DNA of 64,000 nt from Desulfobacterales bacterium (GCA_026983715.1 JALSTM010000077.1:304-64303); one strand, 5' to 3'. Positions 13,109 to 62,259 are shown, counted from the stretch's first letter. A program made the numbers and translations. The notes: generated from the letters alone by a model not told the origin.

Positions 13109-13129
13109 ACAAAGTTCCGGGTAATTTAA

Positions 13130-34456: not shown

Positions 34457-35673
34457 AAATTCAATTTCAGTTTCATATTGGTTTCTGTCTTCCCAGTTCG
34501 TCGAGAAAAATCAGGAGATGAAAATTGCTCTTCAGCCTCAAGCAGGGGAGCGACTCCACGACTAAACCTTTCGATGGCAAGCCTTATGCGCCTACTTGCA
34601 TGTCCGTCACCAAAGGGGTTAGGCATATCGAAACAACGAAAACGCTTCTCGGTATCCAGAATCTTCATCACTTCTTCGACGATTCTTTTCCTGTTTCTCC
34701 CTGCCAAAACACCACGATTTTGATATATAATTTCAGGACGTTCAGTGTGATCCCTCAGTATTACTAAGGGCACGTTATAATATGTTGCCTCTTCCTGTAT
34801 TCCGCCTGAATCTGTCATTGTGAGAGTTGAGTTCTTGAGCGTGTATAACGTGTCCGGGTAATCCAAAGGTTCCAGGAGGTGAACTCTCCTGTTTGGCTCT
34901 AGAATCGATTTCACAGTTGCTCTAACCCTCGGGTTCATGTGTAGCGGGAAAATAAATTCGACATCAGATCGAAGTGAGCTTATTTCATTTATGGCATCGC
35001 AAATATTGCGGAGAGGCTGCCCCCAGGATTCCCGACGATGAGATGTTACGAGTATAATCTTATTGTTACCCTGGCTTAGATTATGGATAAATCTTTTGAT
35101 GTTCACCGATGCAAACTTCTCCATCTTTTTGATAGCATCTATGACCGGATTGCCGGTCACATAGATGGTGTCTTCAGGAATTCCTTCGGTTAAGAGGTTT
35201 TTCTTAGCTGTAAGAGTTGGTGCAAGGTGCACACTTGTAATGGTACTTATTAGCTTCCTATTTCCTTCCTCGGGATAAGGACTATACAAGTTGTGTGTAC
35301 GCAAGCCGGCTTCAACGTGAAATACTGGGATCTTGCAATAATAGGCTACAAGGGCTGAAGCGAACGCACTGGAAGTATCTCCCTGCACAAGAAAGATATC
35401 AGGTGCTAAATCCGCTATAGCAACATCCATTTTCATTGTAATTCGCGAGATAATCTGGTTGAGTGATTGTTGATGTTCCATGATTCCAAGATCTATGTCG
35501 GGGGTTATGTCAAAGACTTTTAAAATGCGTTGTAACATGTCGTTGTGTTGCCCCGTGGTTACAACAAGCGTTTGAATGTCTCCAGATTCTTTCAGGGCTT
35601 TAATTACAGGACCCAGTTTTATCGCTTCGGGCCTGGTGCCGACGGCAACAAGAATTTTTGGTAGAGTGGTCAT
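34453..35673 (-). CDS. wecB: UDP-N-acetylglucosamine 2-epimerase (non-hydrolysing), WecB/MnaA (NfrC equivalent)
   Basis: 'KILVAVGTRPEAIKLGPVIKAL', 'HVEAGLRT', 'DSGGIQEEA' motifs; 4-nt overlap (ATGA) with the downstream GT2 gene. Confidence 0.9.
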   Translation of the reverse strand: MTTLPKILVAVGTRPEAIKLGPVIKALKESGDIQTLVVTTGQHNDMLQRILKVFDITPDIDLGIMEHQQSLNQIISRITMKMDVAIADLAPDIFLVQGDTSSAFASALVAYYCKIPVFHVEAGLRTHNLYSPYPEEGNRKLISTITSVHLAPTLTAKKNLLTEGIPEDTIYVTGNPVIDAIKKMEKFASVNIKRFIHNLSQGNNKIILVTSHRRESWGQPLRNICDAINEISSLRSDVEFIFPLHMNPRVRATVKSILEPNRRVHLLEPLDYPDTLYTLKNSTLTMTDSGGIQEEATYYNVPLVILRDHTERPEIIYQNRGVLAGRNRKRIVEEVMKILDTEKRFRCFDMPNPFGDGHASRRIRLAIERFSRGVAPLLEAEEQFSSPDFSRRTGKTETNMKLKLNL

Positions 35674-39271: not shown

Positions 39272-39323
39272 AGTATTCTTGAGAGCTACTAGGAGTGGTT
39301 CCCGTCTACTCAGAGGTGGTTTT

Positions 39324-40514
39324 ATGAAAAAACACATACTTATACTTGGCGGTGATGGCTATCTCGGTTGGCCCACTGCCATGTATTTCTCTAACCGAGA
39401 TTATAAAGTAACAGTTGTAGATAACTATTTCCGGAGAAATGCTTGTACGGAACTTGACGTGGGCATGCTTTACCCGGTGCCGACTTTGATTCAGCGTGCC
39501 AAAATCTGGTATGATCTCACAGGAAAAGAGATAAAAGTGGTGATCGGTGACCTTACCGATCCTGAACTTATGCGGGCACTATTTGATGGTACCATAGTTT
39601 ACAATTGGGCTGTCAACCCCGAGTTTACCGGGGTGCCGGAGACTGTCATTCACTATGCCGAACAACCCTCTGCTCCCTATTCCCTTATTAATTACAAGTA
39701 TGCAAATATAACTATCAAAAATAATCTCTTGGTAACTAACAACCTTATGTTTGCTGTTCGCGATTATTCTTCTGATACTCATATCATAAAGCTAGGCACC
39801 ATGGGAGAGTACGGAACGCCAAACATTGACATAGAAGAAGGGTGGATTGAAATTGAGCACAAAGGTCGCAAGGATAGGTTCCTTTTTCCTCGCCAGGCCA
39901 GTTCGCTTTATCATACCACTAAAATAATGGATACAGATCTTCTTTGGTTTGGTGTAAGAATGTGGAATCTGCGTGTTACTGACCTTATGCAAGGTCCGGT
40001 TTACGGAATAGAGACGGAGGAATCAAAACTAGATCCGCGTTTACGCACCCTTTTCAACTATGATGAAATTTTCGGTACAATACTTAATCGTTTCATCGTG
40101 CAGGCTGTGGTGGATTATCCTTTAACTGTCTATGGAAAGGGAGGACAGACTCGTGGTTATCTGAACATCAATGATACGCTACAGTGTGTCCACATGTCAG
40201 AAATAACTCCGGCTCAACCTGGTGAACTTCGCATTTTTAACCAAATTATGGAAACTTTTTCAGTTAATGAATTGGCTGAAAAAGTTTGTAACGTGGGCAG
40301 ATCTCTTGGGTATAATGTCCGGGTCAACCATATCGATAACCCCCGTAAAGAAGCTGAAGATCATTACTATAATCCGACGTATCAAGGTTTAATAGAAATC
40401 GGAGTTAAGCCTCACTATCTCACCAAAAAAGTTTTACTAGAAATGTTCCAAATAGTTGAGCAGTACAAGGAGAACGTTAGAACTGACGTTATTTTTAGAG
40501 GGATTAAGTGGTAA
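39324..40514 (+). CDS. sqdB: UDP-sulfoquinovose synthase homolog (SQD1/SqdB/Agl3 family); start at the ATG with RBS (MKKHILILGGDGY)
   Basis: About 400-aa extended SDR; recalled SQD1 blocks 'GGDGYxGWxTA', 'KLGTMGEYGTPNIDIEEG', 'LTVYGKGGQTRGYL', 'FSVNELA', 'NPRxEAEEHYYN' all present. Confidence 0.75.
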   Translation: MKKHILILGGDGYLGWPTAMYFSNRDYKVTVVDNYFRRNACTELDVGMLYPVPTLIQRAKIWYDLTGKEIKVVIGDLTDPELMRALFDGTIVYNWAVNPEFTGVPETVIHYAEQPSAPYSLINYKYANITIKNNLLVTNNLMFAVRDYSSDTHIIKLGTMGEYGTPNIDIEEGWIEIEHKGRKDRFLFPRQASSLYHTTKIMDTDLLWFGVRMWNLRVTDLMQGPVYGIETEESKLDPRLRTLFNYDEIFGTILNRFIVQAVVDYPLTVYGKGGQTRGYLNINDTLQCVHMSEITPAQPGELRIFNQIMETFSVNELAEKVCNVGRSLGYNVRVNHIDNPRKEAEDHYYNPTYQGLIEIGVKPHYLTKKVLLEMFQIVEQYKENVRTDVIFRGIKW

Positions 40515-40648: not shown

Positions 40649-41950
40649 GTGGACTTTGCGCGTAAAGTTGTTAATACGGCGGGTGCAACATTCATTGTTC
40701 GCATATTGGGTTTGGCTGGATCTGTTGTGCTCGGCCGATTACTTGGACCTGAAGGACTGGGAGTATACAGTATACTCCGGGCTATTCCATCTTTCCTTGT
40801 GGCTTTAACATGTGTGGGACTACCAACTGCCGCAGTCTACTACGTTTCTCGCGAACCACAAAATCGACCTCAGATAACTGCGACACTATTCTTTTATGCT
40901 ATAGTATGTGGAAGTATTATCGCCATAGGGCTCTGGATTTCGAGTCCCCTTTTAAATAAGCTCTATTTCAAAGGAGTCTTGAAAGGCTCTTATTTTGTGC
41001 TTCTTAGTTTCCTTGTGCCTTTTATGCTGTTTGTGAGGCTCGGAAGTGCAATACTGCAGGGACTGTATCGGATTACGGAACGAAATGGTGTGGAGATCCT
41101 CCTCCGTACCGTTCTAATACTAGGTTATTTGGCGCTAGTATGGCTGGTAAAGTGGCACATTTTTGGTGCGTTAACAAGCTTAGTTATAGCTCATTGTTTA
41201 ACTGCATTTTACGTTCTATTTTTTGTTAGGCGTGATATAAAATTTACTGTTAGCCGAAATTTCGCAATAATACGTCGTATGTTCGGATATGCCCTGTCGG
41301 CCTTCCTTGGACAGTTTCTCGAACAGATGGAGGGAAATATCATCTTCTTAATACTCGGAATGTTTATCGAATCGGCAAGTCTTGGCTTATTTGCCGTAGC
41401 AATAGCGCTTGGTGGCTTTGTATTATTTCCAAGTACCGCTATAGCGAGACCAATGCTTCCGAGACTAGCGCGAATGGATGAGAAAGAAGCTGGTCGCGCA
41501 TTTATTCAAGTGATACAGGTCGGTCTGATTCTATCCACCCTCACAGCAGTTGCTGTTGTTGTAATTGCACCATATGCGGTTCCTTTGTTGTATGGTTCAA
41601 AATTCAATGGCGTCACAAGAATATTGATCGTCTTGCTTCCGGGGTTTATAGCAGGGGCAATGTTGAGCTTTGTTAGGGTGTATTTTTTGAGTACCGGGAA
41701 ACCCCTCTGGAGAATGTACATGAGCATGTTTAGAGCTGTGTTACTGTTGGTCTCAATCGTAGTGGGAGGAATCAGTGGGGGAATACTCGGGGCGGCAATT
41801 GGTATGACGGTGGGGTTGATTATCACCTTGTTCGGAGCCTTGTGTTTTATTTTTTGGTATAATCCGATTATTGAGTTTCGAGATATGATAGTTGCCTGGA
41901 CAGCAACTGTAACCTATGTCAAGGCATTTATCGGCAGTAGAAAAAGATGA
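40649..41950 (+). CDS. Polysaccharide biosynthesis flippase (MOP/Wzx family)
   Basis: 433 aa, about 12 TM; N-terminal 'VVNTAGATFIVRILGLAGSVVLGRLLGPEGLGVY' typical of PF01943/Wzx proteins. Confidence 0.7.
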   Translation: MDFARKVVNTAGATFIVRILGLAGSVVLGRLLGPEGLGVYSILRAIPSFLVALTCVGLPTAAVYYVSREPQNRPQITATLFFYAIVCGSIIAIGLWISSPLLNKLYFKGVLKGSYFVLLSFLVPFMLFVRLGSAILQGLYRITERNGVEILLRTVLILGYLALVWLVKWHIFGALTSLVIAHCLTAFYVLFFVRRDIKFTVSRNFAIIRRMFGYALSAFLGQFLEQMEGNIIFLILGMFIESASLGLFAVAIALGGFVLFPSTAIARPMLPRLARMDEKEAGRAFIQVIQVGLILSTLTAVAVVVIAPYAVPLLYGSKFNGVTRILIVLLPGFIAGAMLSFVRVYFLSTGKPLWRMYMSMFRAVLLLVSIVVGGISGGILGAAIGMTVGLIITLFGALCFIFWYNPIIEFRDMIVAWTATVTYVKAFIGSRKR

Positions 41951-42054: not shown

Positions 42055-43113
42055 ATGGAAACGGTGGGAATAGATCCAAGAAGCTACAAACACATCTATG
42101 TTTATGGTACTCCTAGAGGTGCAACTAACCTTTTTTGCGCATTACTTCATAATCATACAAATATAGTTGCTATTAATCATAGATCGACGAGAAAGTATCT
42201 CAATCATTTAATAGAAACGAAACGATCGGCTGAAAGATCTCACTGGTTATTCAATATAAAGGACCTAATTTATGAAAAAGGTGGCCCAGCAAAAGATTTT
42301 ACGTGCATTTCTTATATCCTGTTTGACAAGGTTCACTGGGCATCTGATCGTGCCTTTCAACATGTTGAACTCACCCTGTCACGAGTTCGGTCTGGTCTTG
42401 CTGATGGTATCGTCCTAATCCGCCATCCGCTTCAGGTCCTAAAATCAATGGACAATTTCCACCGACGTTACGGACGTCCCAGATGGGCTCTTACACGCTT
42501 CAATGTACTTCGTTACTTGGTGCAGTATTTTTTACCCCAACTGTGGCTTCTAAAAATTAAGGGAATATATGGAATTGTAGTAGAAGCTTTCGTTAAGAAT
42601 TTGCCTTATAGTTATCGGGATCTATGTGAAAAACTCGGGATACCGTTTGAACTTAGATTTGCTGATTTTCGCTTGACTTTTGAGGATGCGCTAACATGGA
42701 CAGGTGGTAAGTTTGTAATACGGAAATCTGAAGTTGTGGGGGGAGGTTCGTTCTTGACCTCCAAAAGTATAAAAGCACCTGCTCAAGATGTTTATTTTGA
42801 CCCGATAAGCGGTGAGCCCACGTGGGGTTATGGCCAGTTTAATCCTGCGTTACCATTAAATCCTGAAAGACTAATGAGAAGTAATGAGAATTTTGATTTA
42901 CCTACTAGCAGCCTCATTAGGGAAGTATTCTGTAAAGGAATTTCAAAAAAAGATGTGGATTACCTTTTTGAAACAAGATTGTTGGACGTCGAAAGGCTTC
43001 GGGAGTTTGACATGAAGGGAATCGGAAACATTATGTTTCATCTGTTGAATCGATTTCCGCCACCGAAGTGGTTGCAATGGTCCTGGAAATATTTGCGTTC
43101 AAGACCTTATTGA
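42055..43113 (+). CDS. Putative sulfotransferase-fold protein
   Basis: Possible 5'-PSB P-loop 'YGTPRGATNLF' and 3'-PB-like 'LIRHPLQVLKS'; no TM; sits between the flippase and the NeuB-like gene. Confidence 0.4.
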   Translation: METVGIDPRSYKHIYVYGTPRGATNLFCALLHNHTNIVAINHRSTRKYLNHLIETKRSAERSHWLFNIKDLIYEKGGPAKDFTCISYILFDKVHWASDRAFQHVELTLSRVRSGLADGIVLIRHPLQVLKSMDNFHRRYGRPRWALTRFNVLRYLVQYFLPQLWLLKIKGIYGIVVEAFVKNLPYSYRDLCEKLGIPFELRFADFRLTFEDALTWTGGKFVIRKSEVVGGGSFLTSKSIKAPAQDVYFDPISGEPTWGYGQFNPALPLNPERLMRSNENFDLPTSSLIREVFCKGISKKDVDYLFETRLLDVERLREFDMKGIGNIMFHLLNRFPPPKWLQWSWKYLRSRPY

Positions 43114-43190: not shown

Positions 43191-43997
43191 ATGGAGCTTA
43201 TAGCGGAAATAGGTTGGAATCATATGGGGGATTTCCAACTGTTAAAGAAGATGGTAAGAGCAGCGGCTGAAGCGGGTGCTACATATGCTAAGTTTCAAAC
43301 ATGGAGAGTAAAAAATCTCAAGCCTGGTCCATGGGACGAGGATGGACGTAGAGATATTTATAAAGCCGCTGAGCTAACGACGAGTGATTTTTTTAAAGTT
43401 AAGAGAACTTGTGAAGAACATGGTGTTAATTTTCTGACCAGTGTTTTTAATCCGGAAGATTTAGAAGATATGGCCCGTGTATCAGACGAAGCCATAAAGA
43501 TTCCCTCTCCAGAGGTCGCAAATATTCCTCTTTTGGAAGGAGCCGGGAAATTGTTCAAAAAGGTTTACCTTTCAACCGGTGCTAGTACTGAAGAAGAATT
43601 AGACCAAGCGATTGATATACTTAGATCTTTAGACTGCGAGTTAACGTTACTTCATTGTGTTTCTATCTACCCGTGCCCTGATGATAAAGTTAATCTCCCG
43701 AGGATCAAAAGACTAAAAGAGAAACATTCTCGGGTGGGTTTTTCCGATCATACTCCCGATAATTTGAGTGCTCTGTTCGCTATTGCACTGGGAGTTGACT
43801 GCATCGAGAAACACTTCACCATTGATAAAAACCTCCCGGGCAGGGATAATCGTTTCGCCCTGTTGCCTGATGAGTTTAAAGCTATTGCAGATGCTGCAGC
43901 TCGTTATGAGCTCATGTCACATGACTTAGGTCTCGAATTTCAACCTGAAGAAAAAGAACAGCGTGAAATCTATCGGGGTAGATGGAGTGGGAGGTAG
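43191..43997 (+). CDS. NeuB/PseI-family sugar-phosphate (PEP) condensing synthase, TIM-barrel only, lacking the C-terminal SAF domain
   Basis: 'IAEIGWNHMGDFQLLKKMVRAAAEAGATYAKFQTW' N-terminal signature of the N-acetylneuraminate synthase family; 268 aa versus about 340 aa for canonical NeuB. Confidence 0.7.
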   Translation: MELIAEIGWNHMGDFQLLKKMVRAAAEAGATYAKFQTWRVKNLKPGPWDEDGRRDIYKAAELTTSDFFKVKRTCEEHGVNFLTSVFNPEDLEDMARVSDEAIKIPSPEVANIPLLEGAGKLFKKVYLSTGASTEEELDQAIDILRSLDCELTLLHCVSIYPCPDDKVNLPRIKRLKEKHSRVGFSDHTPDNLSALFAIALGVDCIEKHFTIDKNLPGRDNRFALLPDEFKAIADAAARYELMSHDLGLEFQPEEKEQREIYRGRWSGR

Positions 43998-44003
43998 AAC
44001 CAC

Positions 44004-45275
44004 ATGTCGAGAAGAAACCCCAAGGTTACTATAGTTGTGCGCGCCAAAAATGAAGAGTTCTGGATAGGGAAGACGCTTGAACAGATAAACCGCCAGACGT
44101 TCCAGGATTTAGAGGTTGTCCTCGTAGACAGTGGGAGTACGGATAGCACCGTTTCAATCTTTCGCAATTATCGACCAAAAGATTCAGTAGTTGATTTGAA
44201 GGACTTTAAGCCGGGGAAAGCCATCAATGTTGGTATTGAGGCCGGTAGAGGTGAACTGATAGTTGTGCTTTCAGCTCACTGTGTACCGGTGGATGAGAAT
44301 TGGCTTGCTAGCTTCATAAAAGTTATGAAAAACGAAAAAGTGGCAGCTGCATATGGCAGACAACTTCCGTTGCCCTCTTCACACCCGCTGGATAAGCGAG
44401 ATTTACTGAACATTTTTGGTATTGAGGCAAAAATCCAGAAAAAAGACACGTTTTTTCATAACGCAAATAGTATAATTCGCCGTGAGATTTGGGAGCAGGT
44501 ACCCTTTGATCCAGATGTTTCTCACATAGAAGATCGTTTGTGGGCTCAAAAAATTATTTCTATGGGCAAGTACATCGCTTATGAACCAGATGCGGCTGTT
44601 TATCATCACCATGGTATTAATCATTACTCTGACCTCAAGAGAGCAGAAGTCATTTCTGATTTGCTTGTCCGCAGTACCATGATCAATGGCAATGAATATC
44701 CTGAATATTTGAAGCCCGAAAATGAACCAATCCTCTTCTGCTTGTTAGGGCATAACCGAGATGTTCACGATCGGTATGTTCCTATTATTCAACAGGTTTC
44801 AAAGAAATTTCAGAAATCAAAAGTCCTAGTTAATACCCGTGTTCCAGAAATGCTATCGGATTATGATGTTATAGCAGTACCTAGACTAGATAGTGAAGAT
44901 CATCTGACTTTTGTGGACATATTGGCAAAAATGATGAATTGTGCGCATTTAGATGGTTTCTTCCCAAATTGCATCGTGTATCTTAACCCAAAGCTTGAGG
45001 GTTTGAATGTAGATATGGTCCATGATTTGGTAGTTCAGTATTATAGAGGGATGTATGATTCCGTCTTTTTTGCCAGGGAAGAGTATAATAATTTATGGGT
45101 AAAAAAGGGAGATACTTACAAGCAACTTATGGCGGATTACGCTCCTAGAGCAGAAAAAACGCCTATACTTGTGGCTCAATATGGATACGGAACAGCTACG
45201 AAGCCACAGTTTATCAGATCACGTGATTTTGTTGGTCCCAAGGTTGGGATTATCCGTATCAAGGAGGCAAGATGA
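44004..45275 (+). CDS. Family-2 glycosyltransferase with about 200-aa uncharacterised C-terminal extension
   Basis: GT2 N-terminus 'VTIVVRAKNEEFWIGKTLEQINRQTFQDLEVVLVDSGSTDST', DxD-like 'EDR'; C-terminal half has no recognisable motif. Confidence 0.7.
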   Translation: MSRRNPKVTIVVRAKNEEFWIGKTLEQINRQTFQDLEVVLVDSGSTDSTVSIFRNYRPKDSVVDLKDFKPGKAINVGIEAGRGELIVVLSAHCVPVDENWLASFIKVMKNEKVAAAYGRQLPLPSSHPLDKRDLLNIFGIEAKIQKKDTFFHNANSIIRREIWEQVPFDPDVSHIEDRLWAQKIISMGKYIAYEPDAAVYHHHGINHYSDLKRAEVISDLLVRSTMINGNEYPEYLKPENEPILFCLLGHNRDVHDRYVPIIQQVSKKFQKSKVLVNTRVPEMLSDYDVIAVPRLDSEDHLTFVDILAKMMNCAHLDGFFPNCIVYLNPKLEGLNVDMVHDLVVQYYRGMYDSVFFAREEYNNLWVKKGDTYKQLMADYAPRAEKTPILVAQYGYGTATKPQFIRSRDFVGPKVGIIRIKEAR

Positions 45276-46000
45276 TAAACGGAAAAAAAGTTTTGGGTAT
45301 AACATTGGCGCGGGGTGGCTCAAAATCTGTTCCAAAAAAGAACATACGTCCCCTTGCGGGTAAACCGCTCATCGCTTACACTATTGAGGCTGCCTTATCC
45401 TCTTCCTACCTTGACGACTACATCGTGTCCACGGAAGATCAGGAAATTGCAGATATTTGCTCAGATCTTGGAGCACGAGTACCATTCCTGAGACCAGTAG
45501 AACTTGCCTCAGATACAGCTTCCTCGGCGGATGCCCTTTGCCATGCTGTTGATTTCGTTGAGCATGAACGTGGTGAAAAATTTGATTATGTAATTGAACT
45601 TATGGCTACAAACCCTTTCAAAACGTCATTGCAGATTGACAAGGCATTGGAAAAGTTGGATGAGACGGGAGCTGATTCAGTTATAGCGGTGACCCGCGTT
45701 TGGGATTATCATCCGGCGAGAATTAAAAAACTGGATGATAAAGGCCGTTTGGTAAATTTTTGCGTACCAGAACCTTTGGAGGCCCGCAGACAGGATCTAA
45801 CACCGCCAGCATATATCAGATGCGGATCTATTTACGCGTTGCGACGTGATTATTTAATGACTACTAAAACGCGCTACGGGTCAAAAGAATCGTACGCACT
45901 AGTAGTTCCCGAAGAAGAATCAATCAATATTGATAACGAATTTGACTTTGCTCTTGCTGAGATCATTATTGAAAAGAGAAAGAAAATTGCAGGTGGATAA
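45272..46000 (+). CDS. CMP-nonulosonate (acylneuraminate) cytidylyltransferase family protein (NeuA/PseF/LegF-like)
   Basis: 'LGITLARGGSKSVPKKNIRPLAGKPLIAYTI' CTP_transf_3 signature; 4-nt overlap with the upstream GT2. Confidence 0.8.
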   Translation: MINGKKVLGITLARGGSKSVPKKNIRPLAGKPLIAYTIEAALSSSYLDDYIVSTEDQEIADICSDLGARVPFLRPVELASDTASSADALCHAVDFVEHERGEKFDYVIELMATNPFKTSLQIDKALEKLDETGADSVIAVTRVWDYHPARIKKLDDKGRLVNFCVPEPLEARRQDLTPPAYIRCGSIYALRRDYLMTTKTRYGSKESYALVVPEEESINIDNEFDFALAEIIIEKRKKIAGG

Positions 46001-46007
46001 TTGAAAA

Positions 46008-47030
46008 ATGGATATTCAATACAAACGCTGGAAAGCATTTGCGAGTTTCGTATCCCAATACCGTGAAGATGGTCATTATTCTTCTCTTTGGTCGGAGTTT
46101 ATCCGTGACTTCACCATAGAGCCTGGTGAATTCAAGGAGGTAAATAAGTTCATTCAAAAAAATTGCCGGGGCTATAGTTTCCTTGATAGCCCATCAGTTT
46201 TCCCTAAGTTTAGAGATGCCACTGAGCTCACATTCGGGCTTGCCGTCCACATAATTGACTCTATTTGGCGCCGGCTTCTGAGCGCAGCCAGGAGTAATAG
46301 GTTGGGGAGGCAATTAGATTGGCGTACATATAAAGTGTATGCTTTTTTGCGAAAAAACGGCATCAAAATTGATGATTACCTGGGGCCGGTTTCAAGAGTT
46401 CACCCAGTACGTATAAGCTATAATTCTTTAAAAACAGTTTATTTTGCTCATAAAGTATTTTCCAACTGCGCCTTCGATAATGATCGAAGAAATTTCTTTC
46501 TGGAAGTAGGTGCAGGAGCAGCTAACTTTCTTATCATTACAGCTTTCCGCTTTTCAAAACTCAGTTACTACGTTGTAGATCTTCCTGAAATGCTCTTAGT
46601 ATCATCGTTTGAAACATTAAAGCACGTTCCGGGTGCGCACATTTATATGCCAAATGATGTGGAAAACGGTGTCTTAGAACAACCACTTCGTGGAGACAAG
46701 AATTTTATTTTTTTGACCCCGTCGCAAATAGGAAGAATTCCTAACAACAGTATCGACTTAGCTCTGAACATAGAATCTTTCGCAGAAATGCCACAGAATG
46801 TAGCTGAAAGTTACATTGACTTTTTCTATCGCATACTTAAGCCTGGTGCTTATATGTTCACAGCCAATCGCGAATCAAGGATCATTTCTGAAAATGGTAG
46901 TTTCACATGTTACTGGAAGTTACCGTATTCTGACAAAGATAAAATAATTTTATGGGAATACTGCCCCATGCGGCAGTTTATGATGAACGGGATGTCCCCG
47001 AATATTAACAGGCTCGCTCGCGTGCCATAG
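46008..47030 (+). CDS. Putative SAM-dependent (sugar O-)methyltransferase
   Basis: Class I MTase motif I 'FLEVGAGAANF', acidic motif II 'YVVDLPE', downstream 'NIESFAEMP'. Confidence 0.45.
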   Translation: MDIQYKRWKAFASFVSQYREDGHYSSLWSEFIRDFTIEPGEFKEVNKFIQKNCRGYSFLDSPSVFPKFRDATELTFGLAVHIIDSIWRRLLSAARSNRLGRQLDWRTYKVYAFLRKNGIKIDDYLGPVSRVHPVRISYNSLKTVYFAHKVFSNCAFDNDRRNFFLEVGAGAANFLIITAFRFSKLSYYVVDLPEMLLVSSFETLKHVPGAHIYMPNDVENGVLEQPLRGDKNFIFLTPSQIGRIPNNSIDLALNIESFAEMPQNVAESYIDFFYRILKPGAYMFTANRESRIISENGSFTCYWKLPYSDKDKIILWEYCPMRQFMMNGMSPNINRLARVP

Positions 47031-47068
47031 TGAGATAGTTGTCCGTGTATTGACTGTTAGGAGATTCG

Positions 47069-48025
47069 ATGAGTAAAATGTATAAGCTTCTTGTCATCAC
47101 ACCTATAGCCCACATAAAGGGACTTAGGCATAAGTTAGCCTCTTGTTTTGATTTAATTGAGTACCCCGATCCTGTTTTTGACGATATTAGAGAAACCTTG
47201 CCTGCTATTGACTCCGTTTTCACAAATCCTAACAAATCAAAGGTACCGATTGATAGGCACTTTATGAGTTTGGCCAAGAACCTTAAAACCATTGCTACAG
47301 CCTCCACCGGGCTCATACATATTGACATGGAGGAGGCTCGGCGACGAGGTGTCAAAGTCATTTCTCTTACCAGAGAAATCGAAACAATTGAAAAAATTAG
47401 CTCTACGGCAGAACATGCTCTGGCATTAACATTGTCCGCGTTGCGTCGGATACCTTGGGCTTTTGAGGATGTTCTAAATGGAAACTGGGACTATGAAAAG
47501 TTCATAGGCCGACAGTTTGACTATTTAACTGTAGGAGTAATCGGCTGGGGACGTCTGGGGAAAATGTATGCTCGCTATGTCCAGGCACTCGGTGCGAAAG
47601 TGTTGGTCTGTGATCCAGCTTACACAGAGAAACAATGCCCGTATGCTTTGGTGGATCTGCAAGATCTGGTGCGACGCTCTGACATCATCTCCATACACAT
47701 CCATGCAACCCCTGAGAACATCGGCTTATTCGGGAAACAGTTGCTGTATTTAGCCAAGCCAGATGTGCTTATAGTCAACACCTCCCGCGGTGAGATTATC
47801 GACGAGCCGGCCATGGTCGAGTTTCTGGAAACCAATCCAAAAGCTATGTTGGCCACTGATGTGCTTGCCGATGAACTCAAGCATAAGTGGGGAAGTCCGA
47901 TATTCGATCTGGCCAAACGCGGTGGTAACGTCCTCATCACTCCACACATCGGCGGCATGACGCGGGAAGCGCAGGAGATTGCTTACCATCGTGTAGCAGA
48001 TATGCTTATCGAGTTCTTCGAATGA
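47069..48025 (+). CDS. D-isomer-specific 2-hydroxyacid dehydrogenase (NAD-binding)
   Basis: 'VGVIGWGRLGKMYARYVQALGAKVLVCD' Rossmann; catalytic R/E/H pattern ('TSRGEIIDE', 'ITPHIGG'). Confidence 0.8.
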   Translation: MSKMYKLLVITPIAHIKGLRHKLASCFDLIEYPDPVFDDIRETLPAIDSVFTNPNKSKVPIDRHFMSLAKNLKTIATASTGLIHIDMEEARRRGVKVISLTREIETIEKISSTAEHALALTLSALRRIPWAFEDVLNGNWDYEKFIGRQFDYLTVGVIGWGRLGKMYARYVQALGAKVLVCDPAYTEKQCPYALVDLQDLVRRSDIISIHIHATPENIGLFGKQLLYLAKPDVLIVNTSRGEIIDEPAMVEFLETNPKAMLATDVLADELKHKWGSPIFDLAKRGGNVLITPHIGGMTREAQEIAYHRVADMLIEFFE

Positions 48026-49089
48026 ACACAAATACCAACGCTGAAACAATAAACATAAAGCCTAGCCGGATCGCTCAGATTGATATTATCAAAGGTATTG
48101 CCATCATAGGGGTGATTATACTGCATAGCATTCCTGCTAAGATCAAAATGTCGACACATGCTGCATTGCACATCCAGCAGGCGGTGCCTGTTTTTATCGT
48201 GGTCTTCGGTTTCAATAGCAGATTACTTTTAATGCGGTACTCAAGTAAATACACAAGGGATTTTGATTGGCGGAGGTATCTCAGTAATAGATTTAGTAGA
48301 ATAGTGCTACCACTATCGTTAATTTGGGTGCTTTCTTTAGTCATCGGCATTGGGATGAAGAGTTTTTTAAAAGATGATGTGATGTATTTTGGCCCAATGT
48401 TGCTTTTTGGAAGACTCCCGTACAGAGGTCCAGGTAATTACTACATATCCGTAATTATTCAATTAGTCATTATTGCACCAATACTTTTATCGCTTTATGA
48501 AAAAAACAAGAAACTGGCACTGATTGGAATTTTTTTAGTCGACTTGGCCTTTCAATTGGGCTTTGGAAGCCTTTCTATAGTAGATGAAGCAACATACGAA
48601 TACATATGTACCCGCTTTTTATTTATGATGGTACTCGGTTTCTGGTTGCATGATCATATGGATCTTTTTTCAAAAAATAATATATGGCTACTTTTGTTAT
48701 CTACCTTCAGTATTGTTTATCTTGTAAGTTTTGGGAATACTGAATTTTCTTATTTTAGAGGTGGTATGAACAATTATGAAAATCTTTTAGCTTCTTTTTA
48801 TACAGCCGCCCTCGTGTTGACCCTATTAAATATTTTGCCAAAAGAAGAAAAAAACATCACGAGCAGATTTGTAGCTAAATGTGGGCGACTTTCCTGGCAA
48901 ATTTTTCTAGTTCAGATAGTCTACTTTCCAATCATACGGTACGTAGTAGATTACCCTAATGTATTTAAAGGGCATGATGTGTCTATTCAGATGGCGCTCT
49001 TAATTGTATATTTGAGCTTGAATATCTCGTTTTGCTATCTATTAGGCTATGCTCTTCAACGCTTTGAGAATAAATACCTGCGCTTATGA
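48022..49089 (+). CDS. Membrane acyltransferase family 3 (sugar O-acyltransferase)
   Basis: 10 TM; N-terminal 'RIAQIDIIKGIAIIGVIILHS' typical of Acyltransf_3. Confidence 0.7.
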   Translation: MNTNTNAETINIKPSRIAQIDIIKGIAIIGVIILHSIPAKIKMSTHAALHIQQAVPVFIVVFGFNSRLLLMRYSSKYTRDFDWRRYLSNRFSRIVLPLSLIWVLSLVIGIGMKSFLKDDVMYFGPMLLFGRLPYRGPGNYYISVIIQLVIIAPILLSLYEKNKKLALIGIFLVDLAFQLGFGSLSIVDEATYEYICTRFLFMMVLGFWLHDHMDLFSKNNIWLLLLSTFSIVYLVSFGNTEFSYFRGGMNNYENLLASFYTAALVLTLLNILPKEEKNITSRFVAKCGRLSWQIFLVQIVYFPIIRYVVDYPNVFKGHDVSIQMALLIVYLSLNISFCYLLGYALQRFENKYLRL

Positions 49090-49243
49090 TAAAAAATTTT
49101 CGAAGGTAAGGAAATCATTGTATTAATAATGAAATGGTTTCATGTGTAGAATTCTGGGAAACGTTACTTCGATTTTTATCAGATATAAGCAGATGAGCAA
49201 AAGAATATTAAACAGAAGAGGCAGATAGGTATACGGAGAAGAA

Positions 49244-50326
49244 GTGCACAATTTTTTCCTTGCATTTACACCCTATCATGTATTGTTATCGTGTGCGGTA
49301 GCTCTTCAAGAATGCACCAATGATTACAACCACCTAGTGATTCGCCCGAGTTTTTCACATGCACAAGTATTGACATCGCTTCTTTCCAATTGGCAAGGGT
49401 CTCCATTTACCAAGATCTCTGTTATTCGTGGATTACATGGTGTGGTTAATGAAGGATTGAGAAGATTGATACTGAAAATGAATACGGTTAAATTGACGAA
49501 AATGGTGATGAAAGAGAGGGTCAATAAAGTTTATGTGGGCTCAGACGGAAGTCCCGAATCGCAAGGGGCCTTGTATTTTGCCAAGAGTTCTAATCGAGAA
49601 AGCAAGGGAATTTATATCGAAGACGGTTCCGCCGCATATAGCGCTGCCCGCTTCTCCGAAAGAAAGGCATGGAAAGAGAATGTTGAAAAGATTTTTTACG
49701 GAACCTGGTGGGAACATATCAACATTCATGGTACCTCGAAATGGACTGATGAAGCCAGGTTAATTTATCCTCGATTTGCGAGACCTGAGTTGAGAACTAG
49801 GGTCTTAAAAGGCATTGACAGGAGAAAAATATTGTGTCTGAGAAAAGCAAAATGGCCTGCCGAATATTTGTCAACCATGGGGCTTAATCAAGTGACCTTA
49901 CGATCAATTGATGGTCTACTTCTGTTGCCTCGTTCGACTTTGGTGGGTGGAATTTCAAATCTTGTATCTATTGTCGATAAGTTTGTGTATCAGGCTTCCA
50001 AACATCATCTGACGATCGGAATCAAGTGTCACCCACGCGATGTTGCGCAAGAATTTCTTGCAAACTGGGACAATAAACACGTGCAGGTGTTGCCGAGTTC
50101 GGTACCTGTGGAACTTCTGTATCTTTATGGTAGCGACAACCTCAGGTTCGTTGTGGCGGGGGGGTCCACTTCTCTCTTAACAGCTCGGTGGTTGCTAAGT
50201 AATGCAAAAATTGTTTGCACTTTATCCTTTTCTAAATCTCTGGATAATCGACTTATGGGTACTTTTCAGAAACTGGGTATCAAGTTGTCCGGATCAGCGG
50301 AAGAAACTTTTGGGTTGATGATCTGA
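49244..50326 (+). CDS. Putative GT52-like (sialyltransferase-type) glycosyltransferase carrying an 'HP' motif
   Basis: Architectural similarity to Lst-type GT52 enzymes (N-terminal 'FTPYHVLLS', mid 'VYVGSDGS', 'IKCHPRD' HP motif); no other family fits; follows the CMP-sugar synthetase genes. Confidence 0.4.
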   Translation: MHNFFLAFTPYHVLLSCAVALQECTNDYNHLVIRPSFSHAQVLTSLLSNWQGSPFTKISVIRGLHGVVNEGLRRLILKMNTVKLTKMVMKERVNKVYVGSDGSPESQGALYFAKSSNRESKGIYIEDGSAAYSAARFSERKAWKENVEKIFYGTWWEHINIHGTSKWTDEARLIYPRFARPELRTRVLKGIDRRKILCLRKAKWPAEYLSTMGLNQVTLRSIDGLLLLPRSTLVGGISNLVSIVDKFVYQASKHHLTIGIKCHPRDVAQEFLANWDNKHVQVLPSSVPVELLYLYGSDNLRFVVAGGSTSLLTARWLLSNAKIVCTLSFSKSLDNRLMGTFQKLGIKLSGSAEETFGLMI

Positions 50327-50445: not shown

Positions 50446-51807
50446 GTGCTTAAAATAAGGCCTCATTATTTCCTTTATATGCTTGCAGCCAGTTTGCCTT
50501 TATCCGCCTTTCCATTCTTGAATTTCGAAACAAGGGCGATCACTTGGGACTGGGTTGTGCTGAGCGTACTGCTTCTTGTTTTTTTTGTTTCAGTGGCAAT
50601 GGGGAAAAAGGTTAAAATACCTCGGGACGAAGTCCTGCTATTCCTTTTTCTGTTTAATTTTTTTCTAATGCTTTCGGGAATACGTCCTGCACTATCTGAG
50701 AATAGTAAACAACTTTTAGATTTTCTCACCGCGTGGCCTCAATATGTGCTTTTTTCTTTGGCATTTGTGGTGATTGCAAGCTTACGTTGCCAGGCTTCGG
50801 TAGTTCGTTCAATATTGCAATGGTATCTTGTTGTAGCGTGGGTAGTGGCGATGTTTGGAATAATCCAGGCAATATCCCATTGGCTATTTCGTGTTGATCT
50901 CTATCCAAGATTAACTCACGTTATGTATACAAAATCTGAAAGCGGCTATGAAATGTATTTGGGCGGTCTGAGTCGGGCAGTCTCCATATTTGAAGAACCT
51001 CGTCAATTCGGAGAATATCTCGATGTGGCTTTTTTTACCACATTAATGAGTTTTCAATGGGATCCTCCGATATTCCGACATCGGTGGATGAGGAGAACTA
51101 TTTTTTCGGCCCTTCTGGTAGGAATACTTTTATCTCTCTCCACCAGCGCATATTTAGGGTTCGTAATCATGGCAATTCTTGTAATTGGAATTTCGGGAAC
51201 TCGGTTGCGCAAAAGGATTATAATGATGCTCCTTATGGGTCTAACAGGTGGACTTTTTTTCGCTTATATTCTGAAAATAAAATTTGGAGTCAGTTTAGGA
51301 GGATATTTGGCTAAACGGTTTCATACCCTACACCATGCCAGGGAAATTCTTGAATTAGATGTCGAACTTGGTGGGATCGCAAGATATATTAGGGGAACAA
51401 TAATAGCTCTTAAAGTGGCAGTTGAGAATCCTGTGTTCGGTACGGGGGTTAACCAGTCGCATTACTGGCTGAGCCCATATGAGAGTTTGGGGCCTGTGGT
51501 CATGCCTCCATTTGATCTTCTCGCATCAGTAGGGATACTGGGAACAACTTGTTTTGTTGGTTTTTTTTACGCACTGATGAAAAGGGCTTGCAATATAAGA
51601 AAACAACTTGGCGAAAAGAATCGCTTTGAAATAGAAACAGCGTTGGGATTGCTAGGAATTGCGGTTATCGCTACGTTAGGGGCAAGTTGGCACCAATATA
51701 ACACTAGCCTATTTTGGTTTCCGGTGTATGTTGCTACACTAATCATTTATAGTATGCCGACTTGGAAATTGAGATCTCCGGTTAAAAGCAATACGGATGA
51801 AAAATAG
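50446..51807 (+). CDS. O-antigen/EPS polymerase or ligase (Wzy/O-antigen-ligase-like, about 10 TM with a large periplasmic loop)
   Basis: 453 aa polytopic membrane protein; periplasmic loop between TM9-10 region; sits in a Wzx-containing locus. Confidence 0.6.
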   Translation: MLKIRPHYFLYMLAASLPLSAFPFLNFETRAITWDWVVLSVLLLVFFVSVAMGKKVKIPRDEVLLFLFLFNFFLMLSGIRPALSENSKQLLDFLTAWPQYVLFSLAFVVIASLRCQASVVRSILQWYLVVAWVVAMFGIIQAISHWLFRVDLYPRLTHVMYTKSESGYEMYLGGLSRAVSIFEEPRQFGEYLDVAFFTTLMSFQWDPPIFRHRWMRRTIFSALLVGILLSLSTSAYLGFVIMAILVIGISGTRLRKRIIMMLLMGLTGGLFFAYILKIKFGVSLGGYLAKRFHTLHHAREILELDVELGGIARYIRGTIIALKVAVENPVFGTGVNQSHYWLSPYESLGPVVMPPFDLLASVGILGTTCFVGFFYALMKRACNIRKQLGEKNRFEIETALGLLGIAVIATLGASWHQYNTSLFWFPVYVATLIIYSMPTWKLRSPVKSNTDEK

Positions 51808-59117: not shown

Positions 59118-60095
59118 GTGGGTTACTCGAGAGAACTACTTGCGAATCTATATCGCACAATGGTTCGCATCAGATTTTGCGAAGAAAGCTTGGTCAAACC
59201 TATTTTGAAAGGTGAAATAATATGTCCGTGTCATTTATATTCTGGGCAAGAGGCTGTTGCGGCCGGCATTTGTGAGTCTTTGAATGAGAAAGATTACGTG
59301 TTTGGTACTCATCGGTCTCATGGACACTTTTTAGCTATGGGTGGAGCTATGAGGGATTTGTTGGCGGAGATTTTTACCCGGGAAACAGGGTGTTCGAGAG
59401 GTAGGGGAGGTTCCATGCACTTGATTGACCCTGGAAAGGGAATTATGGGAGCTGCTCCTATTGTTGCCGGTACAATTTCTCTCGCCATGGGTGCCGCCCT
59501 TGCTTCTAATTTGCGCGGTGAGAAGAGAGTGGCTGTGAGTTTCTTTGGAGATGGGGCAGCAGGTGAAGGAGTGCTCTACGAATGCCTTAATTTTGCGGCT
59601 TTAAAAAAACTACCATTGGTATTTGTCTGCGAAAATAATTTTTATTCTACTCACATGCCGATACAAGAATGCAGAGTTAATGGAGACATTTACAAGATTG
59701 CAGAGCCTTTTTCCGTTAAGTCTTCTAAAGTCGATGGAAATGACGTTTTAAAGGTGTACGAGGCAGGTAAGGAAGCAATTGAGTTTTGTAGAAAAGGGGA
59801 AGGACCTGTGTTTCTTGAATGTAAAACTTATCGCTTTAGAGGCCATGTGGGCCCTGACGACAATATTCAGGGAACGCATACCGACATACGCCCGAGGGAA
59901 GAAGTTGAAAGTTGGTTAAAAAAGGATCCGATAACACGATTTGAGAAATATCTGCTGGAGAATAATCTTCTAAGTGAAAAACTACTTGATGGTATTAAGA
60001 AAGAGATTAGTGACGAAGTTGAAGAGTCCATTGAATTTGCGAAAAACAGTCCGTATCCTGAAGCAAAGGAATTAACCCGATATGTCTATAAATAG
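59118..60095 (+). CDS. TPP-dependent 2-oxoacid dehydrogenase E1 component, alpha subunit (PdhA/AcoA-like)
   Basis: 'GQEAVAAGI', 'THRSHGH', TPP-binding 'GDGAAGEGVLYECLNFA'; 14-nt overlap with the beta subunit. Confidence 0.85.
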   Translation: MGYSRELLANLYRTMVRIRFCEESLVKPILKGEIICPCHLYSGQEAVAAGICESLNEKDYVFGTHRSHGHFLAMGGAMRDLLAEIFTRETGCSRGRGGSMHLIDPGKGIMGAAPIVAGTISLAMGAALASNLRGEKRVAVSFFGDGAAGEGVLYECLNFAALKKLPLVFVCENNFYSTHMPIQECRVNGDIYKIAEPFSVKSSKVDGNDVLKVYEAGKEAIEFCRKGEGPVFLECKTYRFRGHVGPDDNIQGTHTDIRPREEVESWLKKDPITRFEKYLLENNLLSEKLLDGIKKEISDEVEESIEFAKNSPYPEAKELTRYVYK

Positions 60096-61077: not shown

Positions 61078-61099
61078 AAGAGACGGAGGTTAAATCAAT

Positions 61100-62227: not shown

Positions 62228-62259
62228 AAACATAGAGCTTTCTACAAGAAAGGGATGCA

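Follow-up and report, generated by a model that had tools for sequence, protein, structure and literature searches.

Pathways for CMP-Kdn, as described in Bacteroides thetaiotaomicron (BT1713-1715) and Serratia marcescens (the neuA-neuB genes of KL1/KL2), combine a NeuB-type synthase with a CMP-synthetase and have no NeuC/PseG step. In these systems the aldose is drawn from central metabolism and the product is incorporated into the capsule or a surface polymer (PMC6200933, PMC9000132). Kdn is made in Serratia with neuA and neuB alone (PMC9000132), a route from Man-6-P to Kdn-9-P is on record (PMC6200933), Prymnesium likewise has no recognisable dedicated phosphatase (PMC6200933), and the Kdn polymer of Streptomyces bears methyl groups (PMC11481543).

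A cassette of genes resembling these systems was found at positions 43191-50326 of a 64,000-nucleotide stretch of Desulfobacterales DNA (hereafter, the window). Every gene described in an earlier note on this DNA was located where that note had placed it, and its proposal of a non-canonical ulosonic-acid pathway, with a NeuB-type synthase lacking the SAF domain, a CMP-transferase and an HP-motif sialyltransferase-like enzyme, was borne out. The genes all lie on the + strand and are tightly packed: the synthase and GT2 fusion genes are separated by 6 nt, the cytidylyltransferase start overlaps the GT2 fusion stop by 4 nt, gaps of 7 and 38 nt precede and follow the O-methyltransferase gene, the dehydrogenase and acyltransferase-3 genes overlap by 4 nt, and 154 nt separate the latter from the final transferase gene. 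The cassette shares with the canonical NeuBCA, PseBCHGIF and LegBCHGIF pathways the fold and catalytic residues of the synthase, a CTP_transf_3 enzyme for CMP activation and an HP-motif transferase, but it differs from the canonical Neu5Ac, Pse and Leg pathways in having no SAF domain, no hydrolysing 2-epimerase or PseG and two extra conserved enzymes, and its proteins score under every equivalog cutoff (NeuB 211 vs 400, PseI 168 vs 340, PseF 162 vs 206 bits). Unlike the phosphorylated Kdn/Neu5Ac route (BT1713-1715, animal NANS/NANP), it is accompanied by no HAD ulosonate-9-phosphate phosphatase in the window; the Serratia NeuB carries an extra isomerase-like domain, in contrast to the minimal synthase found here; and, going by their descriptions, neither the BT1713-1715 nor the Serratia system has been reported to include the GT2/pseudo-synthetase fusion or the 2-hydroxyacid dehydrogenase. 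It is rather likely that the genes at 43191-48025, probably together with those at 48022-50326, form a self-contained module for making, decorating, activating and transferring a 3-deoxy-2-ulosonic acid of the sialic acid class.

The first gene (43191-43997, + strand) encodes a PEP-condensing 2-keto-3-deoxy-acid (ulosonic acid) synthase of 268 residues, here called NeuB-short, which comprises the TIM barrel only. The Pfam NeuB model (PF03102) matched residues 21-241 of 268 with 200 bits (4e-59), covering model positions 1-234 of 241, and the alignment to TIGR03569 ended at model position 277 of 329, before the SAF part; the scores were below the equivalog cutoffs (210.6 vs 399.65 bits for NeuB; 168 vs 340.25 bits for PseI). 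The closest solved relative is 6NCS, a crystal structure with a 290-residue chain named 'sialic acid synthetase', which was the top PDB match (5e-35) and is also SAF-less, the alignment reaching to about 7 residues from the end of its chain; no functional data were found for 6NCS, and it is a distant relative without the C-terminal Y-x-G-R-W that, together with a G-P-W-D-x-D-G-R-R loop, is a signature of the NeuB-short family. Residues E6, K34, Q36, K103, S106, S128, S185, H187, E206, H208 and D219 were invariant in an alignment of 36 family members and fall on the corresponding motifs of 6NCS and 8H2C; their positions are taken to match those of the metal and PEP ligands of NeuB (a His-x-His pair, Glu, Lys/Gln and Ser), with the N. 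meningitidis enzyme as reference.

That the protein ends at residue 268 with no SAF domain, as the earlier note had stated, could also mean that it is a truncated, non-functional NeuB in a cluster that has lost the ability to make an ulosonic acid, a reading for which only the absent SAF domain and the equivalog scores below cutoff speak. However, thousands of proteins of this length make up the family, whose 58 invariant columns include the catalytic set; the best 120 database relatives are 232-295 aa long and consist of the NeuB domain alone; and the operon position of NeuB-short is conserved across phyla. The next gene begins 6 nt downstream, and an HMM for SAF, which was derived from 26 relatives that carry the domain and recovered 30 hits in a positive control, detected no SAF remnant in six frames of all 64 kb. 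With a SAF-less homologue crystallised as well, truncation is extremely improbable and effectively refuted, and NeuB-short is, as judged from its sequence, an intact enzyme. Absence of SAF is found well beyond this locus, in a large and conserved family for which a structure has been solved. In the N. meningitidis NeuB structure, an arginine of the SAF domain touches the ManNAc N-acetyl group, and a lack of SAF fits a non-acetamido substrate. SAF-less NeuB proteins have been recorded as an 'environmental' NeuB group, and one Streptomyces NeuB is without SAF (PMC8208679).

The cytidylyltransferase predicted in the earlier note, here called CT3 (45272-46000, + strand), is a CMP-ulosonic acid synthetase of the NeuA/PseF/KdsB family (PF02348, CTP_transf_3, 87 bits, cutoff 22.6). 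The PseF model matched it over its full length with 162 bits, below the equivalog cutoff of 206. CT3 retains LARGGSKSVPKKN (the CTP-binding loop), RRQD and NIDNEFD (the acidic metal motif), and is apparently catalytically intact. It is followed by the gene previously described as methyltransferase-like (46008-47030, + strand), which encodes a sugar O-methyltransferase of the NanM family (TIGR04371, 67.4 bits, cutoff 44); a gene of equal length (340-341 aa) occupies the matching position in locus L090 and lies nearby in Desulfovibrio ferrophilus. The expected membrane acyltransferase-3 (48022-49089, + strand; PF01757, Acyl_transf_3, 82 bits) is likely to O-acetylate the glycan or the acid sugar, and is not conserved among related cassettes.

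The last gene (49244-50326, + strand) encodes ST360, a 360-aa GT-B transferase of the bacterial sialyltransferase kind (GT38/GT52/GT80). The polysialyltransferase model PF07388 matched it with 27.1 bits (gathering score 23.3), within the last 80 residues. The HP motif and the sialyltransferase resemblance claimed for this protein stood, but it scores as GT38 and not as GT52, although its relatives match both PF07388 and PF07922. Two sialyltransferase motifs, E126-D127-G128 (D/E-D/E-G) and H263-P264 (HP), are invariant in the family, as are YIEDGSAAY, K-x-H-P-R, PVELLY and STSLLTA. The AF2 model (pLDDT 90) has a GT-B fold, for which the best Foldseek match was the polysialyltransferase 5WCN (1.2e-10), followed by GT80 and GT52 structures (2ZWI, 2YK7, 2IIQ). 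ST360 shares with GT38 (5WCN), GT52 (NST, 2YK7) and GT80 (PmST1, 2IIQ) the fold, both motifs and a conserved Glu and Ser/Thr stretch in the C-terminal domain, at an identity to these structures of 12-14%. No characterised member of the 360-aa family, which counts 1228 representatives, was found; one relative (P0248) adjoins a canonical set of NeuB with SAF and cytidylyltransferase. The genomic association with cytidylyltransferase and NeuB genes suggests a CMP-ulosonic acid as the putative donor.

The dehydrogenase (47069-48025, + strand), also anticipated in the earlier note, is a short D-2-hydroxyacid dehydrogenase (Pfam 2-Hacid_dh_C, 132 bits) closest to 3-phosphoglycerate dehydrogenases (PGDH model 183 bits; best PDB matches 1YGY and 1WWK). 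A NeuB partner was present near the GT2 fusion in 20 of the 21 loci with a 2-hydroxyacid dehydrogenase of this type, and a 2-oxoacid reductase (2-Hacid_dh, Ldh_2 or shikimate-DH-like) accompanied the synthase in 39 of the 50 loci that have at least 6 kb on both sides of the fusion gene. We know of no role for a 2-oxoacid reductase in any known CMP-ulosonate pathway, which counts against the pathway proposed here. Such a recurrent reductase could indicate that the keto acid is an intermediate and not the finished sugar. NeuB-short would then form an omega-phospho-ulosonate, the PGDH-like enzyme would reduce C2 to give a 3-deoxy-aldonate phosphate, CT3 would make a CDP-linked acid-alditol and the HP-motif GT-B enzyme would install a teichoic-acid-like phosphodiester. 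The scheme follows the logic of ribulose-5-P to ribitol-5-P to CDP-ribitol. Phosphoglycerate dehydrogenases act on omega-phospho 2-hydroxy acids, the family-specific invariant arginines R53, R54, R218 and R264 of NeuB-short could bind an anionic group, a phosphatase is absent, and the HP-motif transferase neighbouring the cassette in locus L007 gives a weak Glyphos_transf (TagF-type) match. However, CT3 can be aligned with PseF and NeuA from end to end and keeps their motifs, to our knowledge every characterised member of its family makes CMP-ketosides, ST360 matches sialyltransferases and not TagF, and we know of no acid-alditol phosphodiester polymer of this kind, all of which makes this route improbable.

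The second gene (44004-45275, + strand) encodes a fusion protein, here called GT2L, in which a GT2 domain (residues ~1-205) is joined to a second domain (~235-423). Pfam identified GT2 (5e-21; PF00535, 75.7 bits, residues 9-164), after which a tail of about 200 aa had been left unassigned in the earlier note. Our profile comparisons identify this tail, for the first time here, as a degenerate CMP-sialic-acid-synthetase-like domain. CTP_transf_3 (PF02348) matched the tail in 12 of 48 aligned members (best 1.7e-14), and the tail region of the family profile matched the CMP-Neu5Ac synthetases 1QWJ (6e-6), 6IFD and 9T4Z; the homology spans the entire domain. All tails shown have lost the ARGGSK..P.KN (CTP-binding) loop by deletion; the ID.D acidic metal motif is lost as well, the tail of the window's clade stopping before it; a rough motif check, covering the 45 of 80 loci with a delimitable tail, agreed with this loss. 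In the GT2 domain, the invariant S90-A91-H92 stands where ordinary GT2 enzymes have D-A-D, so that the DXD metal-binding motif is absent, while the nucleotide-binding aspartates are retained. The AF2 model (pLDDT 92.5) shows two GT-A-like domains, and its fold matches are GT2 enzymes. GT2L is conserved over its full length and has relatives in at least 495 species. Vertebrate CMAS carries a non-catalytic KdsC-like C-terminal domain, and both proteins join an active enzyme of ulosonic-acid pathways to an inactivated homologue of an adjacent enzyme in the pathway; in GT2L, however, the synthetase is the dead partner and the GT2 domain the live one, and there is no phosphatase-like domain.

A relative with 78% identity and D. 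ferrophilus (71% identity) have NeuB-short, GT2L and CT3 in the same order, and the conserved unit extends to the methyltransferase and 2-hydroxyacid dehydrogenase. Within 7 kb of GT2L, a cytidylyltransferase was found in 44, a keto-deoxy-acid synthase in 36 and a dehydrogenase in 43 of the same 50 loci, the synthase being a NeuB, a DAH7P-synthase-like protein or HpcH. In two loci (L005 and L006) the cassette adjoins a separate canonical set of NeuB with SAF and its own cytidylyltransferase, in L006 also with a 2-epimerase, and it therefore represents a distinct pathway. The pairing of GT2L with the dehydrogenase also occurs with SAF-bearing NeuBs, and in Leptospira-type loci beside LegB/LegC/NeuC-like genes, so that the cassette is not tied to non-amino sugars. 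No assayed close relative of any cassette enzyme was found.

The cassette sits within a Wzx/Wzy-dependent surface-polysaccharide operon. A Wzx-type flippase gene (40649-41950, + strand) was matched weakly by MOP flippase models, an identical gene being on record as Polysacc_synt family, and a Wzy-like polymerase gene (50446-51807, + strand) encodes a multi-pass hydrophobic protein with a Wzy_C score of 24.8 bits, below the gathering score of 31.7. The same operon contains a PseB-like dehydratase gene (38174), a hexapeptide acetyltransferase gene (53103) and a DegT aminotransferase gene (54771), as the earlier note had pointed out. These genes could feed an amino-sugar route, which is a point against the pathway proposed here, and the cassette could in that case provide the last steps of a Pse/Leg-like pathway to a di-amino nonulosonic acid, in which they make a UDP-2,4-diacetamido-trideoxyhexose and GT2L is a non-homologous replacement for PseG/LegG that frees the aldose for NeuB-short. 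PseG is itself a hydrolase with a glycosyltransferase fold, GT2L retains nucleotide-binding aspartates and lies directly downstream of the synthase in nearly all loci, and many minimal cassettes contain nothing else that could supply free aldose. However, the PseB and PseC models gave scores well below their cutoffs (270 vs 408 and 310 vs 423 bits), and the DegT gene belongs with a GFO oxidoreductase and the acetyltransferase to a WbpB/E/D-like trio typical of 3-amino sugars. No dehydratase or aminotransferase gene was present within 10 kb of the cassette in D. ferrophilus or in Magnetococcales. GT2L is no replacement in the Leptospira-type loci, where a NeuC-like gene (cluster c18) is present; it is also found with DAH7P-synthase-like and HpcH enzymes, which use substrates not derived from nucleotide sugars; and the dehydrogenase is left unexplained. 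We therefore regard the di-amino route as unlikely. Since the conserved unit recurs in loci without nearby PseB or DegT genes, the three genes, though present in the operon, more likely serve other repeat-unit sugars than a truncated Pse pathway.

No NeuC, PseG or LegG was found in the window (the scan took in ORFs from 150 aa upwards in 1-34 kb and from 180 aa upwards in 34-64 kb), in agreement with the earlier note; as one correction to that note, a 2-epimerase of another type does lie in the window. The sole 2-epimerase in the window is a non-hydrolysing UDP-GlcNAc 2-epimerase, WecB (34453-35673, - strand; TIGR00236 406 bits vs NeuC model 97 bits), which lies outside the cassette in a separate Nfr-type operon, its end overlapping an NfrB-like gene by 4 nt, with NfrA_C and DUF4434 genes downstream. 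The 'missing' NeuC/PseG step is probably not really missing, because Kdn-type routes need none.

From these domain identities, motif states and gene linkages, we infer a pathway in which NeuB-short would join PEP and an aldose from general metabolism to give a 2-keto-3-deoxy acid. Most likely this aldose bears no amino group, and it may be anionic or phosphorylated; the formation of Kdn from mannose or mannose-6-phosphate is an example. No UDP-sugar hydrolase or 2-epimerase would then be needed; a phosphorylated substrate would require a phosphatase, and no HAD or other phosphatase was found in the window, which argues against the scheme. CT3, as a NeuA/PseF-type enzyme, would couple the acid to CMP, the NanM-type methyltransferase would add an O-methyl group and acyltransferase-3 probably an O-acyl group. 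ST360 would then move the acid from CMP to the repeat unit, with the EDG aspartate as base and the HP histidine as acid. For GT2L, we tentatively suggest that the dead synthetase domain binds the ulosonate or CMP-ulosonate and serves as a docking module beside the real synthetase, while the metal-motif-less GT-A domain alters the acid at the monomer stage. The dehydrogenase may be of the 2-ketoaldonate-reductase type and act on the open-chain 2-oxo acid or its phosphate. The product is probably a CMP-activated, O-methylated, non-amino (Kdn-like) ulosonic acid; the sequence does not name it, in line with the earlier note, which had left the choice between Kdo-like, Kdn-like and novel ulosonic acids.

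In conclusion, the cassette is a compact set of genes, conserved widely although not yet studied, with which a sialic-acid-like acidic sugar would be made and attached. On a more speculative level, the GT2L fusion and its dehydrogenase partner might represent a hitherto unrecognised step that spans phyla and is shared by many ulosonic-acid pathways (C7 DAH-like, C9 NeuB-type and HpcH-aldolase-derived), a possibility that we consider doubtful. Such a step could be a monomer-level glycosylation or other group transfer onto the acid or its C2-reduced form, or the labile CMP-sugar could be handed over inside a synthetase-transferase complex. If this is true, the product of the SAF-less NeuB cassette would be an activated acidic sugar, or sugar-acid derivative, of a class not yet described chemically.

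Seven plus-strand genes occupy 43191–50326, within a long plus-strand operon that extends from approximately 38.2 kb to beyond 63.4 kb, and the domains that the earlier note had named for them were all borne out by profile searches. The first gene encodes the short, 268-aa NeuB-type synthase (NeuB-short, 43191–43997; NeuB, 200 bits) and is followed by a 423-aa GT2 fusion protein (GT2L, 44004–45275), in which the GT2 match (76 bits) covers residues 9–164 only, and by a separate cytidylyltransferase (45272–46000; CTP_transf_3, 87 bits; PseF model, 162 bits with a cutoff of 206). Next are a methyltransferase (46008–47030) matching the TIGR04371 'NanM' sugar O-methyltransferases (67 bits, cutoff 44), a D-2-hydroxyacid dehydrogenase (47069–48025; 132 bits), whose top PDB matches are 3-phosphoglycerate dehydrogenases, and an acyltransferase-3 (48022–49089; 82 bits). 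The spacings from the NeuB gene to the acyltransferase gene are 6, -4, 7, 38 and -4 nt, and the last gene, which encodes a 360-aa HP-motif transferase (ST360, 49244–50326), is preceded by a 154-nt gap. The window's proteins are not members of the NeuB, PseI and PseF equivalogs, because all cutoffs were missed.

The synthase had been described as stopping after the barrel without a C-terminal SAF domain, and this was confirmed; its alignment to the NeuB equivalog model ends at position 277 of 329. A frameshifted or relocated SAF domain, as expected of a truncated pseudogene, was ruled out by the 6-nt gap to the next gene and by an SAF HMM, built from 26 SAF-bearing NeuBs of related cassettes, which recovered 30 positive controls but, across all six frames of the window, detected no SAF domain at an E value of 10 or below. 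Among 5.8 billion proteins searched, 4163 were related to NeuB-short at E ≤ 1e-10; the 120 closest measure 232–295 aa and contain the NeuB domain alone. Alignment of 36 relatives yielded 58 invariant columns, including E6, K34, Q36, K103, S106, S128, S185, H187, E206, H208 and D219, which correspond to the metal and PEP ligands of the Neisseria meningitidis structure. The SAF-less synthase is real and not a pseudogene, and the reading that NeuB is truncated and the cluster no longer makes an ulosonic acid is extremely improbable.

Features specific to the SAF-less family include an invariant G-P-W-D-x-D-G-R-R loop (residues 46–54), a nearly invariant C-terminal Y-x-G-R-W (residues 261–265), and the arginine within an L-P-G-R-D-N motif. 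Judging from these motifs, the C-terminal tail could substitute for the SAF arginine, and the four family-specific arginines might either replace that arginine or bind an anionic substrate. The top PDB match to NeuB-short is 6NCS (E 5e-35), the chain of which ends a few residues past the barrel. The lack of the SAF domain as such was already known, because a 2021 survey had recorded that approximately 30% of bacterial NeuB-domain proteins, from environmental organisms and with untested function, are without it (PMC8208679).

More than 2000 proteins, 416–478 aa long and matched along their whole length, make up the family of GT2L. The GT2 assignment in the earlier note was correct, and the tail of approximately 200 aa that it had called unknown was identified by profile matches as a degenerate CMP-sialic-acid synthetase. 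The tail matched CTP_transf_3 and NTP_transf_3 in 12 of 48 members scanned singly (best 1.7e-14), and in the family profile the same region matched the CMP-Neu5Ac synthetases 1QWJ (6e-6), 6IFD and 9T4Z. The tails align end to end with true cytidylyltransferases, with the A-R-G-G-S-K...P-x-K-N CTP loop deleted and R-R-Q-D altered; further tails showed the same loop loss, and in the clade of the window's GT2L the protein ends before the I-D-x-D motif. By these sequence criteria, the tail is a dead CMP-sialic-acid synthetase. An active second cytidylyltransferase was ruled out, since the CTP loop was found in no tail inspected, including that of a locus (L050) that has no separate cytidylyltransferase. 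Conservation is high in the N-terminal domain (45 positions in total are invariant), and the GT2 DXD motif is replaced by an invariant S-A-H-C, which pairs in the alignment with the D-A-D of an ordinary GT2. In the structural model (pLDDT 92.5) both domains are GT-A-like, and the closest structures are likewise GT-A enzymes of two domains. At one marine locus the N-terminal domain occurs alone, with the same motifs, adjoining a NeuB-short gene. Three GT2L open reading frames (L008, L014 and L021; 656, 672 and 614 aa) appear to exceed the family norm by approximately 150–250 aa, which could reflect an extra fused domain or an artefact of calling the frames from the first start codon.

In a scan of one genome per species, GT2L relatives were found in at least 495 species, including Leptospira, Magnetococcales, Scalindua, Nitrospira, Desulfobacterota, Pelagibacteraceae, Omnitrophota, Elusimicrobia and CPR bacteria such as Uhrbacteria, a range that takes in anammox bacteria, SAR11 relatives and magnetotactic bacteria. 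Neighbouring genes were clustered in 80 GT2L loci and counted in those 50 where 6 kb or more flanked GT2L on both sides. A cytidylyltransferase was located within 7 kb of GT2L in 44 of these 50 loci, a dehydrogenase accompanied it in 43, and an enzyme forming a 2-keto-3-deoxy acid in 36, with GT2L usually directly downstream of the synthase. The enzymes had regular partners: for NeuB mostly a 2-hydroxyacid dehydrogenase; for the DAH7P-synthase-like enzyme, both a GFO oxidoreductase and a shikimate-dehydrogenase-like enzyme; and for the HpcH aldolase, a true KdsB together with Ldh_2 and a short-chain dehydrogenase. A further type without a synthase carried GFO and Ldh_2. Most cassette NeuBs have the SAF domain, are approximately 345 aa long and share approximately 29–37% identity with NeuB-short, and three fall in the SAF-less clade with 49–62% identity; SAF loss is therefore a lineage variant within a single type of cassette and not a defining trait. 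In Desulfovibrio ferrophilus, the closest named organism, whose NeuB-short orthologue is 71% identical, NeuB-short, GT2L and the cytidylyltransferase are in the same order as in the window; its dehydrogenase and a methyltransferase of 340 aa are encoded close by, and neither a dehydratase nor an aminotransferase is encoded within 10 kb. At two metagenomic loci, the NeuB-short cassette adjoins a canonical NeuB+SAF set that is complete and has a cytidylyltransferase of its own. The locus in the window shows the SAF-less enzyme as part of a fixed five-gene unit, which includes GT2L and the dehydrogenase.

Several of the related loci had further features. A canonical set adjoining a NeuB-short cassette contains a single 604-aa gene comprising NeuB, SAF and CTP_transf_3 (L005, 1782–3596). 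The HpcH/HpaI pyruvate aldolase type with Ldh_2, short-chain dehydrogenase and bona fide KdsB was found at L012–L014, L017, L023–L026 and L085, some of the loci of this type adding a histidine phosphatase and an APH-type kinase-like gene. GT2L cassettes of CPR bacteria (Uhrbacteria and others; L015, L048, L068 and L076, approximately 8000–13600) combine the DAH7P-synthase-like enzyme (269 bits, cutoff 335) and a cytidylyltransferase with a GFO oxidoreductase and a shikimate-dehydrogenase-like protein, and have no dehydroquinate synthase, which hints at a CMP-activated heptulosonic or heptulosaric acid.

The statement that the locus lacks a NeuC/PseG step was upheld over a wider region, as no NeuC, PseG, LegG or phosphatase gene was found anywhere in the window among the open reading frames scanned (at least 150 aa in 1–34 kb and at least 180 aa in 34–64 kb). 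The PseB-like gene scored far below the PseB cutoff, and the DegT, GFO oxidoreductase and hexapeptide acetyltransferase genes form a group of the kind typical of 3-acetamido sugar synthesis. A UDP-GlcNAc 2-epimerase (34453–35673) is of the WecB type, with 406 bits as against 97 bits with the NeuC model, and its gene opens a minus-strand Nfr-type exopolysaccharide operon (27353–35673). It overlaps by 4 nt the gene for an NfrB-like GT2 with a C-terminal MshEN domain of the c-di-GMP-binding type (32213–34456), followed by genes for a 1263-aa NfrA-like TPR protein with NfrA_C (28429–32220) and a DUF4434 protein (27353–28369); WecB therefore serves another polymer, and this operon accounts for the only 2-epimerase in the window. 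WecB was thus ruled out as the missing epimerase, being non-hydrolysing, on the opposite strand and at the head of an NfrB/NfrA-type operon. That GT2L itself is the missing nucleotide-sugar hydrolase, for a Pse- or Leg-like product, is unlikely; as a generic NeuC replacement it is weakened by the co-occurrence of NeuC-like genes with GT2L in several loci. Synthesis without a hydrolase has precedents: Serratia capsule types make Kdn from neuA and neuB only (PMC9000132), and Bacteroides and Prymnesium form Kdn-9-P directly from mannose-6-phosphate, with no recognisable phosphatase homologue in Prymnesium (PMC6200933). Streptomyces walls contain a Kdn polymer with methyl groups (PMC11481543), and a Streptomyces NeuB is listed among the SAF-less ones (PMC8208679).

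ST360 had been described as a GT52-like HP-motif transferase. Its sialyltransferase-like, HP-motif character is well supported by its Pfam match, invariant motifs, structural model and the context of a distant relative; by score it is closer to GT38 than to GT52, its match being to the C-terminal part of PF07388, the GT38 polysialyltransferase family (27.1 bits against a gathering score of 23.3). A word-based search found only eight relatives, most with PF07388 and two also with the GT52 family PF07922. Their alignment has four invariant stretches: YIEDGSAAY, which holds the D/E-D/E-G motif, K-x-H-P-R, which is the HP motif, PVELLY and STSLLTA. When 1.84 billion representatives were searched with a full profile, 1228 relatives emerged, of which 384 were below 1e-30. 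The AlphaFold model has a GT-B fold (pLDDT 90), with the polysialyltransferase 5WCN as best solved match (E 1.2e-10) and GT80 (2ZWI, 2IIQ) and GT52 (2YK7) sialyltransferases among generic GT-B structures. The distant relative (P0248) adjoins a canonical DegT, NeuB+SAF, formyltransferase and cytidylyltransferase set, next to a KpsC/S-type gene. A family HMM found no ST360 member in the 80 GT2L loci, which rules it out as a core cassette member; ST360 is a locus-specific transferase. Large family-less proteins with an H-P motif (IRYHPS, ITPHPAKS) are encoded at L007 (9584–10984) and, as neighbour cluster c45, at L015, L048, L068 and L076, one with a weak Glyphos_transf match; they are probably locus-specific ulosonate transferases, counterparts of ST360.

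The polysaccharide operon also encodes a UDP-sulfoquinovose-synthase-like SDR (39279–40514; 400 bits, cutoff 575) and, 3' of the flippase gene, a 352-aa protein (42055–43113) with no match in Pfam, NCBIfam or PDB. The related D. ferrophilus locus contains a Sulfotransfer_1 gene, and the polymer may therefore include a sugar that is sulfated or sulfonated. Also inside the operon, in the region 59118–63417, an E1 alpha/beta pair that depends on thiamine (E1_dh; Transket_pyr + Transketolase_C) is placed between the phosphoglycosyl transferase on one side and a DegT-type and a class I/II aminotransferase on the other, an unusual content that suggests a branched or acyl-modified amino sugar.

As read from its genes, the cassette would be a self-contained route that works like a CMP-ulosonic acid pathway. 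NeuB-short would condense PEP with a metabolically available, probably non-aminated aldose, and the resulting acid would be activated with CMP, O-methylated and probably also O-acylated. ST360 would then transfer it to the repeat unit on which the operon's Wzx, Wzy and phosphoglycosyl transferase act. We regard the ulosonic-acid framework as highly probable, and its Kdn-like, hydrolase-free specifics are somewhat favoured. The dehydrogenase families of these cassettes include known 2-ketoaldonate reductases, so that action of the PGDH-like dehydrogenase on an open-chain 2-oxo acid is plausible by analogy; a route through a reduced, CDP-activated acid-alditol is very unlikely. Within the CMP-ulosonic acid scheme, the most plausible role for the dead synthetase domain of GT2L is to bind the acid or the CMP ester of the acid; the GT-A domain of GT2L would carry out a monomer-level transfer.

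Some parts that define the canonical pathways, and some that define the phosphorylated Kdn pathway, are absent here, and to our knowledge neither the GT2/dead CMP-synthetase fusion nor the PGDH-like dehydrogenase has a place in any textbook ulosonic-acid pathway. Literature searches found no characterisation of SAF-less NeuB function or of NeuB with a 2-hydroxyacid dehydrogenase, and no paper on the fusion or its linkage to keto-deoxy-acid synthases; the Leptospira NulO paper leaves the fusion and dehydrogenase genes unmentioned. The main interest lies mostly in this conserved accessory pair, GT2L and the dehydrogenase, rather than in SAF loss itself. The question is directly testable in D. 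ferrophilus, a cultured carrier. Sialic-acid-like sugars shape the recognition of bacterial surfaces by phages, hosts and neighbouring cells, and the GT2L reaction, once defined, would extend a widespread area of glycan biosynthesis by one step and might also account for unassigned CMP-linked sugars detected by mass spectrometry in environmental bacteria.
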